Assembly: GCA_965218095.1 (NCBI GenBank)
Contig: OZ244587.1
Span: 448,001 to 512,000, forward strand
DNA: 64,000 nucleotides
Direction: 5' to 3'
Source of the DNA: Candidatus Poribacteria bacterium
GTDB taxonomy: Bacteria; Poribacteria; WGA-4E; PCPOR2b
The position numbers were made by a program, and so were the translations under genes. Shown here piece after piece: positions 20,512 through 23,290 of the stretch (position 1 is the stretch's first letter; each line of letters begins with the position of its first letter). The notes beneath the pieces are model-generated. The model ran no database searches and was not told the origin of the DNA. It was given only the letters and a program-made list of their open reading frames with translations.

Positions 20512-20781
20512 TCAACTAACTGTTATTAAACCCAGTCTACGACCGACTTCTTCATTTTCCACTTCAATCCCCGCCTTGTTTTCCATATAGTATTCCAACG
20601 CTTCTTCTACTGTCTCAATGGGTAAGTCAAAGCCTTCAGCCGTTTCCTAGATAGTAAATTGGTTCGCTCGCATCGTTGCAACGAGATTCCAAGCCGGCAT
20701 GTTTCGATCTTTCACACCGAGAAATTTGGTCTTTTTATAGGGCTTTGGTTCAAGATAGCGATAGTGATTCTCTTGACTCAT
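20512..20781 (-). pseudogene. DUF433-like small HTH/antitoxin-type gene (3' exon of the intron) with an in-frame TAG
   Basis: MSQENHYRYLEPKPYKKTKFLGVKDRNMPAWNLVATMRANQFTI*ETAEGFDLPIETVEEALEYYMENK..; TAG at 20647-20649. Confidence 0.65.
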
Positions 20782-20784
20782 TTC

Positions 20785-21559
20785 GTATGGATAGGTAGAA
20801 CCCTTGCGGGTTTTCCCCCCATCTAAACCGTGCGTGTGACTTTCACCGCACACGGCTTGCTCTGTCAATTACTGATTATCCAAAATAAGTGGTTAGAAAA
20901 CCTTTAGGCTGTCTGGGTTTATTTCTAACGAAATTGGATAATCTCAGCCATACTTATTCTGTATCATTTAGAACATTGAGGACGAGTTGCCAAGTATGTT
21001 TTCACAGTGACTTGATTTTGCGCTCATTTTCCTTTAATCTATTTATGTTCCTTTAATCTATTTATGATACATTTCTGTATGTTGACACTAGGCAGGCTTG
21101 GCATAAATGCCTATCTGCCTTCCTCTCCCATATTTCTTTATAGAAACTTAGGGACTTTCCTGTTCTCACATAATGCACGTTATGAACGATTTAGGCTCTG
21201 ACTGTACCCCGAAGCTGTATAGCTTACTAGTAGTATGATAAAATAACATACCATCTTTGATTTTGCAATGTTTAAGCATTATCACTTAGCTCGTACTTTT
21301 TAGTTATAGGCTGTTTATTGCAGATGCACCTATTCAAAGGTGACGAGGCTTCAATCATCAGTTCAACTTTTGCTTTAGCCATTTCGTTCTTAGCCTGACG
21401 TATCAGTTTATGGGGTCTGCATTCCCCACAGGATATGCGCCTTTTCCCTTTGCTTTCCACATTGTCTTTTCAAACAATGCAGTTAAGGTAAGGCTTGTGG
21501 ATGTAAGCTACCACTGATGGATTTTCACCATCATTACATTATGCTACACAGAAACGCAC
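20785..21559 (-). mobile_element. ORF-less group II intron (IIB, class-B-like), 775 nt
   Basis: 5' end GTGCG at 21559. 34-nt DV AAGCCGTGTGCGGTGAAAGTCACACGCACGGTTT (20825-20858) with AGC triad and GAAA loop. DVI GGGGGGAAAACCCGCAAGGGTTCTACCTATCC with bulged A at -8; 3' end ..ATAC. EBS1-like ATTTTA (21239-21244) pairs with the 5' exon TGAAAT. AT-rich, no RT ORF. Confidence 0.92.
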
Positions 21560-21562
21560 ATT

Positions 21563-23290
21563 TCACTCCTTTCTATTTTCACCGAAACGCTCCAGCATTT
21601 CCTTTGCCTCATGCCCTTCCTCTGAGTTGGGATATTTTTCTGCAAGGTTTCGCAAAAGTTCCAACACGCCGCTCTGCTTGAGTTCCTGCGCCAACTCCAA
21701 CTGATAGTGGGCTATGCGCAGCATCGCTGACGGGGCTCTCGGCCCCTCCGGTGCAACCACTAAGATCTGGTTCACCTGATCCAATGCCTTATCAAACTCC
21801 CCTTTGGCTTTGTAACATTCAGCGAGACGTTCACGGGCTTCGAGTGTGGTGAGGAGATCATTGTAATCTTCGATGAGTTGCGTATTGACGCTGATCGCCT
21901 CATCTCAATTCTCCATCCATTGTGCAATTGCAGCCAAACCACGCAGTGAGGGTAATGCGGCGGCAGGGCTAACAGCTTTATCTGCGGCTTGACGAAACAT
22001 CTTCGCAAGTTCGGGGAGCTTGCCCCTCACCTCCAACTCGGCGATCACGTCTTCTTCATGCGAGGCTTCGATGAAACGGCAGATAGCTTGACGACGCAGA
22101 TAAGGATTCGGGTTAGCAAGGAGAGAACTCAAAAAATCAATTGCTTTCTCGCGTTGATTCGTCCGCCAGTACATCTCTAGGAGTTGCATCATGGCTTCAT
22201 GGGCATGCTCGGTTTGCGGAGAGGATTCGACAAGGTCTTTGAGGATAGACTCCGCGCGATCGTAATCGAAGTTTTCAGCATAAACTTCGGCGAGATTTCT
22301 TAACACTACCACATTGAATCTGTCGGGATATCCCTGGGAAAGTCGGGTAAGGAGTTCGATCGCTGGATCCGATTTCCCAAATTGTTGGTAAAGTTGGGCC
22401 GCCCGACGGAGCGCCCATTGCGCCTGGTCAGTTCCACGAAACTCGACGGCAGTGAGAAACGCTTTGAGGGCAGCCTGCAAATCGCCTTTCTCCTGGTGCA
22501 TACCACCCATTATTGACCACACATGAACGATACTCCAATGTGCGGGAAAGGTTTCAATCGCTGCATTGCACGCCTTGATTGCTTGATCTAGCTCTCCCAT
22601 CTCCCAATAGGTTTCAGCAAGTTGGACGAAGGCTTCAACACGGTCTGGATGGTTCTTCTGGATTTTCTGAAATAGCTCGATTGCCTGTTGATGCCCTCCA
22701 CGTTCCCGGTAGTGTTCGCCTAGCCGCAACGTCAGCCAGAACGTGTTTTCTTGAAAGGGATACTGCTGGATCATCTGATCAATCCGTCGACGCGCATCTT
22801 CAAGCCAACCGTGTTCCAAATCTGACTCAATAATGACCTCCATCGCCTCAAATACCTGATAATCGCCGATGAATTTTGTTGTAATCTCATCAACGAGTTT
22901 GCGTGCATTATCCAGATCTTCTTTCTCAACCGCATGGCAAAGCTGCCACATCAAGATTTCAGCCTTCTCTCGCGGGTGGGAAATCGCAGCTTCCGCTTCC
23001 GCTAAAATCGACTGTGCTTTCTCAGGTTGTCCGAGCGCGGCATAGCACTCGCTCAGTTTCATGCGTGCCCACTTCGCTTCCCAACGCCATGGGTCATAGG
23101 CAAGTAGGCGTTTGCACTCCTTGATGACGACTTGATACTGTCTCTGGTGGAACAGTTTCTCGATTTCTTCGATGGGTCTAGCAACGAAATCATCTGGGAC
23201 TTCCTCTTCGTCAACAGGATTCTCAATTTGTGCCCCTAAAATCGGTATCACTGCAAACAAGAAAATCAAGCAAATCAGTGGTATTTTCAT
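21563..23290 (-). pseudogene. Exported TPR-repeat protein interrupted by one in-frame TGA
   Basis: Signal peptide and many TPR helices. After the TGA at 21905-21907 (probably TGG) the same frame continues DEAISVNTQLIEDY..KGEFDKALDQV into ORF 21563-21784. Confidence 0.85.

Follow-up and report, generated by a model that had tools for sequence, protein, structure and literature searches.

The window analysed here is a stretch of 64,000 nucleotides (nt) from a Candidatus Poribacteria bacterium (contig OZ244587.1, positions 448,001 to 512,000), and it carries on its minus strand what we read as a group II intron without an open reading frame (ORF) for a reverse transcriptase (RT). A TPR-gene tail ends in TGA 3 nt upstream of the element, and the ATG (20779-20781) of a DUF433-family ORF follows 4 nt downstream, so that the element stands between a Shine-Dalgarno-like (SD-like) AAAGGAG and the start codon. 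The SD-ATG spacing would be 9 nt if the intron were removed, and the two are 775 nt apart while it is unspliced. The locus is made up of the following features, among them the intron-binding sites (IBS) of the 5' exon, which are matched by exon-binding sites (EBS) in the intron.

20785..21559, minus strand: whole ORF-less group II intron, 775 nt, GTGCG...CATAC, with its ends set by Rfam, the 5' ends of the family and the EBS/IBS register
21560..21565, minus strand: IBS1, exon positions -6..-1, TGAAAT, overlapping the TGA stop (21563-21565) of the TPR-gene tail
21568..21572, minus strand: IBS2, exon positions -13..-9, AAAGG, within the SD-like AAAGGAG of the DUF433 gene
20513..20781, minus strand: DUF433-family 3'-exon ORF, starting 4 nt past the intron and interrupted by a premature TAG (20647-20649)

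The SD-like motif overlaps IBS2 and hence also the pairing partner of EBS2. The segment itself had been proposed in a preliminary description of this DNA as AT-rich, 775 nt long, starting with GTGCG and ending with CCTATCCATAC, and re-reading of the sequence from 21559 to 20785 agrees with this; its G+C content is 39.2%, compared to 50.0% genome-wide. Group II introns share the 5' consensus GUGYG, the 3' consensus AY and a bulged branch-point A 7-8 nt from the 3' end. The termini GTGCG...CATAC and a bulged A at -8 fit this pattern. The Infernal search suggested in the preliminary description returned a match to RF00029 (domains V-VI) at 20860..20785 on the minus strand, with 54.3 bits against a gathering score of 40 bits (E 6.7e-08), covering model positions 1-77 of 77. 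It is the sole gathering-level RNA family in the window, and it stops at the proposed final base of the intron. The end of this match, the 5' ends of 15 full-length family members and the EBS/IBS register are concordant on the boundaries. The group-II-D1D4 models, suggested at the same time, gave a different outcome, because the best of them in a permissive Rfam scan (D1D4-7) reached 24.2 bits, below its gathering score of 34; such sub-threshold matches make the D1-D4 models unusable for subclassification. The permissive scan also gave a sub-threshold mir-460 match, which we regard as chance.

The claim that the intron has no RT/maturase frame stands, as none of its ORFs of at least 70 aa is RT-like. 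Judged from its sequence, the element is a genuine group II intron of the IIB type (chloroplast-like (CL)/IIB1-like), ORF-less and non-autonomous, and it would be invisible to protein-based annotation, as had been proposed. The IIB type put forward earlier is in keeping with the presence of EBS2 and an EBS3 column, and with an intron-encoded protein (IEP) of the family that has an HNH domain and whose nearest solved relative is T.el4h. This kind of element is already known, and the intron is an additional member.

Minimum free energy (MFE) folding of the single sequence alone laid out all six domains (DI to DVI) with -217.4 kcal/mol (z = -3.36), and 0 of 20 shuffles was equally stable. The domains are placed as follows; I13 is a sibling copy elsewhere in the genome.

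21157..21554, minus strand: DI, intron nt 6-403, closure TTTCTGT/ACAGGAA, from the RNAalifold consensus with the same closure in the MFE fold
21123..21155, minus strand: DII, short, about intron nt 405-437, containing CCTAAG...TATGG, with compensations in the inner hairpin
21089..21119, minus strand: DIII, about intron nt 441-471, with GGCA/TGCC here and GGTA/TACC in I13
20864..21086, minus strand: DIV, intron nt 474-696, closed by GTCAA/TTGAC, with remnants of the lost RT/maturase gene
20825..20858, minus strand: DV, 34 nt, with AGC triad, GAAA loop, AC bulge and a private G-to-A at 20837
20785..20822, minus strand: DVI, with the bulged branch-point A at 20792 (-8)

For DI-DII, a consensus was obtained with RNAalifold from 22 sequences, 12 from the same genome and 10 from relatives. 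I10, R08, R15 and R16 were left out because the anchor motif failed, and R05 and R06 because they have the same intron sequence as R04; L032 and L038 were unused because one intron end is incomplete. Among the 107 pairs of this consensus, 14 are invariant and 85 are supported by compensatory double changes. The canonical fraction was 0.943, compared to 0.34-0.44 in a control with the 3' partners shifted by 1-3 columns. The window intron retains 105 of the 107 pairs (0.981 canonical, in a family range of 0.868-1.000). DI closes through nt 6-12 with 397-403 and nt 16-25 with 383-392, leaving no insertion at its base, and the CCTAAG...TATGG of DII is presumably the GAAA-tetraloop receptor motif. 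DIII-DVI are backed by the MFE fold and by compensations seen in siblings, such as CCC/GGG against TTCC/GGAA in DVI. The ribozyme fold is almost fully preserved. The preliminary description is borne out in its canonical 34-nt DV and in the position of the bulged A of DVI, and the DI-DVI folding that it called for succeeded. Its intact catalytic core is upheld for the triad, bulge, tetraloop and branch A, which like the EBS sites are free of lesions, but not for the upper helix of DV. A C.A mismatch flagged by Rfam lies there (intron C712/A723, window 20848/20837), and it is private, being found in 0 of 32 other family copies from this genome and from relatives.

Recognition of the exons would rely on four elements in DI, one of which seems to be a spare at this site.

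21232..21252, minus strand: hairpin Y with EBS1, ATTTTA at 21239-21244, stem GGTATG/CATACT
21258..21284, minus strand: hairpin X, alternative EBS1-type, loop TTAAACATT, intron nt 285-293
21336..21340, minus strand: EBS2 core CCTTT, intron nt 220-224, in the loop CACCTTTGAAT
21204, minus strand: candidate EBS3 C, intron nt 356, pairing with the 3'-exon +1 G at window 20784

The ATTTTA of hairpin Y pairs 6/6 (one G-U) with the exon TGAAAT at -6..-1 in a fixed register, which confirms the EBS1 (AUUUUA in a GGUAUG/CAUACU loop) of the preliminary description. That description was silent on EBS2, EBS3, the second EBS1-type hairpin and the large sister family. Within the EBS2 loop CACCTTTGAAT (intron nt 218-228), CCTTT pairs with AAAGG, and across 13 copies this loop is variable and tracks each copy's own exon at about -13..-9. 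Cognate pairs scored a mean of 4.88/6 compared to 3.27 for non-cognate ones, a value matched in 0 of 20000 permutations, and the own exon was top-ranked in 10 of the 13 copies. The EBS3 column is Watson-Crick with exon +1 in 18 of 22 copies, with all four bases represented. All three predicted IIB-type exon contacts are intact in the window intron.

The intron belongs to a large family. In the genome assembly, a single contig of 6.35 Mb with an estimated completeness of 93.87%, the BLASTN check for sister copies proposed earlier yielded 32 matches to the intron. There are 23 RF00029 matches above threshold and 15 full-length family 5' ends. Pairing of these gave at least 13 copies with both ends, 715-2452 nt in length, as well as fragments of the 5' and 3' parts. 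Six of the 23 RF00029 matches have a more divergent DV-DVI (near 402.7, 1767.7, 3231.1, 3716.7, 5249.6 and 5730.1 kb). Four mid-sized copies carry antisense insertion sequences (IS) (C1:707444-709174, 4389514-4391036, 5526113-5528121 and 5863431-5865187); among the three IS-bearing copies checked with Pfam, rve was found in I14 and a DDE transposase in I04 and I10, and the ORFs in I15 closely resemble those of I04. One copy in the genome retains an HNH remnant only. Related genomes of the same bacterial family also contain the intron family, including copies with intact IEPs of 579-591 aa. Several copies adjoin high-copy repeats, as seen in the flanks of I12, I07 and I15: the downstream flank of I12 (C1:4516394 onward) has 39 blastn matches at about 99% identity that begin 4-9 nt past the intron end, and the upstream flank of I07 has three further occurrences at 99%, one of them with the truncated intron F06.

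The supply of maturase in this genome is poor. I03 (C1:598220-600671) is the only copy here with an RT/maturase gene (RVT_N, RVT_1, GIIM and HNH), and the best relative of the family IEP in PDB is 6ME0_C, the T.el4h maturase (E 2.5e-57). Genome-wide there is one GIIM match and there are three RVT_1 matches, two of which are the halves of the split I03 gene. This gene has an in-frame TGA near 599.4 kb and a frame switch near intron nt 1275-1281. The RT-encoding parent that the preliminary description looked for is thus represented by I03, but with a gene broken by a stop and a frameshift. The third RVT_1 match is a 507-aa Drt4-type antiviral RT (C1:1094736-1096259; L053:537-2060), the only other RT in the genome (NCBIfam, 505 bits against a cut-off of 450; PADLOC Drt4, E 2.9e-161). 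No intact related IEP gene was found among the GIIM and RVT_1 profile matches of this 93.87% complete assembly. A search for related loci with the I03 IEP in a collection of genome contigs gave 136 pattern matches, 0 of them confirmed.

What remains of such a gene in the window intron can be recognized in DIV, which aligns to the IEP start region of ORF-bearing relatives (AATAGATTAAAGG here and AATGGATTTAACC in R13, followed by about 20 codons) and also to the tail past their IEP stop. The start region is mutated in this remnant. The window intron (I02), I07, I13, I14 with its IS removed and the fragment S07 are colinear through DIV and lie at different sites, which is most simply explained by a single deletion and subsequent spread in trans. 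By these alignments, the intron is a deletion derivative of an RT/maturase-encoding intron, and it must have been mobilised in trans. A further change in DIV is private to the copy in this assembly.

21029..21066, minus strand: 19-nt tandem duplication, 2.0 copies, 100% identical, repeating the remnant of the mutated IEP start region

The duplication had been reported at about these positions in a short DIV, and its exact extent is now fixed. It is absent from I07, I13, I14 and S07, as well as from the near-identical (98-99%) contigs of two RNA libraries (X1 and X2), and so it is a strain-level polymorphism or very recent.

The host site seems to be in decay as well. The DUF433 ORF has 38 homologues, the closest of which are 77-83% identical and 88-92 aa long, and its premature TAG corresponds to Q in the four closest aligned homologues. 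Upstream, the TPR gene has an in-frame TGA at 21905-21907, and TPR sequence runs on to 21563. Because the stop codons differ, the in-frame stops of the TPR gene (TGA), the DUF433 gene (TAG) and the I03 IEP gene (TGA) point to pseudogenes or assembly errors and not to recoding. In relatives from genus g4 (G014, G017, G003 and G015; L022-L029), about 64 nt separate the end of the TPR gene from the start of a DegT aminotransferase gene, and about 1 kb comprising the intron and the DUF433 ORF (20513-21583) is missing, so that both of these represent additional DNA at the window locus. A metagenome contig with a DUF433 homologue (L058) is intron-free at the equivalent junction and includes only 10 nt upstream of the ATG. 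The DUF433 homologues of G001 and G005 were considered as empty sites and rejected, since they are fused to a different upstream ORF and are not comparable. Across 26 distinct family sites from this genome and relatives, which are not independent of one another, an SD-like motif lies at -16..-5 in 11 (baseline 9.9%), and in 6 it is accompanied by an ATG within -3..+9 (baseline 1.4%). An ATG stands directly 3' of the intron in I05 and R15, and one spans the junction in I03 and I15.

How the family finds such sites may be related to the organization of its DI, in which hairpins X and Y stand in tandem with a 9-nt loop each. In the fixed register, the exon positions -6..-1 pair 6/6 with X (loop positions 3-8) in I03, I04, I07, I11 and I12, and 6/6 with Y in I02, I05, I08, I14 and I15, while I01, I10 and I13 pair 5/6 with X. 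Non-cognate best-window scores of at least 5.5 made up 1.9% for X and 2.7% for Y, and 0 of 50000 permutations reached the cognate mean. Among relatives, 14 distinct instances (without R06, whose intron and exon are identical to R05) gave an EBS1 cognate mean of 5.54 compared to 4.35, again with 0 of 50000 permutations, and both hairpins are also present in another copy, from G040, which pairs 6/6 through X. The copies are kin and not independent, so that these EBS1 statistics overstate the support. Most telling is the comparison of I08 with I12: over 653 nt their identity is 98.9%, and they do not differ in either the X or the Y loop. Despite this, the exon of I08 matches Y 6/6 and that of I12 matches X 6/6. 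At the window site, hairpin X is unused (1/6 pairs) and its stem is broken by a 2x2 internal loop. A search within 80 nt of either exon for the exact complement of the unused loop gave 0 in 11 copies, with 0.4 expected.

We are evenly divided on whether X and Y are interchangeable EBS1 hairpins, in which case one intron RNA could read two different target sites and, with an EBS2 complementary to SD-type sequences, the family would be aimed at translation-initiation regions. That the window intron uses Y and bears a decaying X stands in the same balance. If true, the spare loop would be free to drift, providing a route to new targets without loss of splicing at the resident site. Group II introns would thereby have a new means of diversifying their target specificity, one that could also prove useful in practice for intron-based gene targeting. 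Literal full-text searches, which extended to the text and not to figures and supplements, yielded no description of a second EBS1 hairpin or a dual one; the 'EBS1a/b' of PMC3753933 are names of mutants and not a dual EBS1. We also observed a twintron-like locus (L052, G017:C1:2980700-2982050), in which a family intron with its 5' end at locus nt 407 lies within another family copy. It is inserted just past the conserved GGTGAATCTGC that follows the EBS2 loop, and its hairpin Y matches the site 6/6.

Taken together, we think it likely that the element is an ORF-less group IIB deletion derivative, brought to this site by reverse splicing with a protein supplied in trans and now stranded. An internal deletion in DIV would have removed the RT/maturase ORF from the ancestral intron. 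The derivative would then have arrived by reverse splicing, guided by the pairing of EBS2 with AAAGG, of EBS1 in hairpin Y with TGAAAT and of the EBS3 C with G+1, and the protein for this would have come from a related intron. Forward splicing would reunite the SD with the ATG. That the element is now stranded is partly a matter of observation and partly of interpretation, and it is suggested by the broken state of the sole RT/maturase gene, by private lesions in DV, DIVa and the spare hairpin, and by the loss of an intact host gene. In this strain we would expect splicing that is weak at best and independent of protein, and no autonomous mobility. Elements of this kind may die out or come to rely on other factors, and a family caught after the loss of its last maturase would be a natural example of this.

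Transcripts provide a further view of the element, through four sponge-metatranscriptome runs that were available as assembled contigs, which cannot show rare forms. Contigs in X1 and X2 with 1-4 mismatches (98-99% identical) cover the window from 20829 to 21526, and none of the listed RNA contig pieces crosses an exon-intron boundary. The ligated-exon junction 21560-20784 was found in no contig of the four RNA-library runs, in which rare forms are invisible. Uncovered parts and relative contig depths carry no weight here; this applies to the low or missing flank coverage in X1 and X2 and to the very high depth over DV, which is due to short contigs of other copies. A joint of 20512 with 21606, present in one X3 contig with 30 nt on its shorter side, was considered as a splice product and rejected, because it is the arrangement of related genomes free of the intron and the DUF433 gene. 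The splice competence that the preliminary description had inferred finds no support in these data, and whether splicing is detectable in vivo in this strain appears to us rather doubtful.

Several points weigh against the reading of a stranded derivative. The RNA contigs show neither splicing nor its absence, and the intron RNA is possibly present or stable, which may fit active splicing better. The assembly may have missed DNA that encodes an intact maturase, or co-resident strains may harbour one, and some of the lesions of I03 could be assembly errors. The IIB1 assignment is based on the logic of the EBS contacts and the nearest solved relative of the IEP rather than on phylogeny. Finally, the sole empty-site comparison is weak, since it extends only 10 nt upstream of the homologue's ATG.

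Among other explanations, the one that we keep as a tentative possibility is that the intron is a dead relic, whose well-preserved structure is catalytically inactive and is co-transcribed or carried along. This would account for the private lesions of DV and of the hairpin X stem as well as for the 19-nt duplication in DIVa, and it would agree with the broken family IEP, the in-frame stops of both neighbours (TPR TGA and DUF433 TAG) and the IS insertions that riddle the siblings. However, the lesions are few, and none falls in the triad, bulge, tetraloop, branch A or EBS; a fold with a canonical fraction of 0.981 also matches that of the best siblings (range 0.868-1.000).

It is unlikely, in our opinion, that the intron is still functional, splicing efficiently in vivo either unaided or with the help of a host factor or of a maturase encoded on an unassembled replicon or by a co-resident strain, so that the excised RNA accumulates. 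Three intact EBS/IBS pairings, 105 of 107 DI-DII pairs and the near-identical RNA contigs over 20829-21526 in two runs are what such an intron would exhibit, and the genome completeness of 93.87% leaves room for another maturase gene. There are also precedents in the parts of the literature considered here: C.te.I1, which is ORF-less and has no IEP gene in its genome, self-splices robustly (PMC4424553), and the Avi.groEL IIB1 intron self-splices in vitro (PMC12584367). However, no contig spans the junction (contigs drop rare forms), the one RT/maturase gene found has two lesions, and DV has its private C.A mismatch. Moreover, the host gene is already broken, and there is no obvious selection for splicing.

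The position of the intron between AAAGGAG and the ATG, with IBS2 overlapping the SD-like motif, brings up a splicing-dependent translation switch for DUF433, in which the SD would be sequestered until removal of the intron and the intron would be kept for regulation. The combination of SD-like motif and ATG at 6 of 26 sites, compared to a baseline of 1.4%, points in this direction, and passages of PMC12584367 state that some bacterial introns modulate host-gene expression. We find the switch highly improbable, because the gene to be regulated has a premature stop, the block of intron and gene is absent from the genus g4 relatives, and an SD-complementary EBS2 inherited from the ancestor explains the pattern of sites equally well. 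A chance DV-like hairpin in AT-rich DNA, to which one might be led by the DV-DVI model alone passing the Rfam threshold while the D1-D4 models fail, is refuted to near certainty by the family-wide covariation, the EBS/IBS cognate tests, the sisters with RT/maturase genes and the exact agreement of the boundaries.

With 23 DV-VI matches and one broken IEP gene in this genome, protein-based pipelines would see almost none of the family. As a retroelement family, it occupies many loci, separates ribosome-binding sites from start codons and serves as a landing pad for IS elements.

In passages of PMC4424553 (Zimmerly and Semper 2015), bacterial ORF-less introns are described as rare and as nearly always occurring alongside a related IEP, which makes a family with only a broken IEP gene moderately unusual. 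C.te.I1 of Clostridium tetani, from the same source, resembles the window intron in being ORF-less in a genome without a usable IEP gene. C.te.I1 is reported as a lone self-splicing intron, whereas the window intron belongs to a set of at least 13 copies, whose parent can be recognised and is broken.

A IIB1 lineage found at start and stop codons is defined, in the passages of PMC12584367 that describe it, by an extra 300-700 nt inserted at the base of DI. The window intron shares with this lineage an IIB1-like ribozyme, an IEP lineage with an endonuclease (En) domain and a location a few nt from stop and start codons. It differs in having no 300-700-nt 5'-subterminal insertion, as DI closes at nt 6-12/397-403, and its hosts are a TPR-gene tail and a DUF433 pseudogene instead of housekeeping genes. 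According to the same passages (Gomes et al. 2025), the ORF-less dnaN introns of Trichodesmium erythraeum are spliced by the maturase of the RIR intron. The window intron is like them in being ORF-less and, as far as its origin is concerned, reliant on the RT of a related intron as a general maturase. The dnaN introns, however, lie within an essential coding sequence, and their splicing has been demonstrated, whereas the window intron lies in the intergenic translation-initiation region of a broken gene, and a working maturase gene was not found in its genome.

The closest parallel appears to be the TeI3/TeI4 introns (CL/IIB1) of Thermosynechococcus elongatus, in which, from the passages of Mohr, Ghanem and Lambowitz (2010, PMC2882425) considered here, the ORF-less TeI3 introns derive from TeI4 parents by deletion in DIV. 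T. elongatus is described there with six potentially active IEPs, in contrast to the genome studied here, in which no intact driver IEP was found, and the host here is apparently sponge-associated and non-cyanobacterial, a cyanobacterial origin having been rejected because the genome gave no match to phycobilisome proteins. The two alternative EBS1-type hairpins also set our family apart from TeI3/TeI4 as these passages describe them. In other respects the two cases agree well. Both comprise many related copies in one bacterial genome, with EBS sequences that have diverged to fit their own exons and with insertions into IS elements and other introns. Like TeI3, the window intron has become ORF-less through deletion in DIV, leaving N- and C-terminal remnants of the ORF, and the nearest solved protein to the IEP of its family is the T.el4h maturase of T. 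elongatus.

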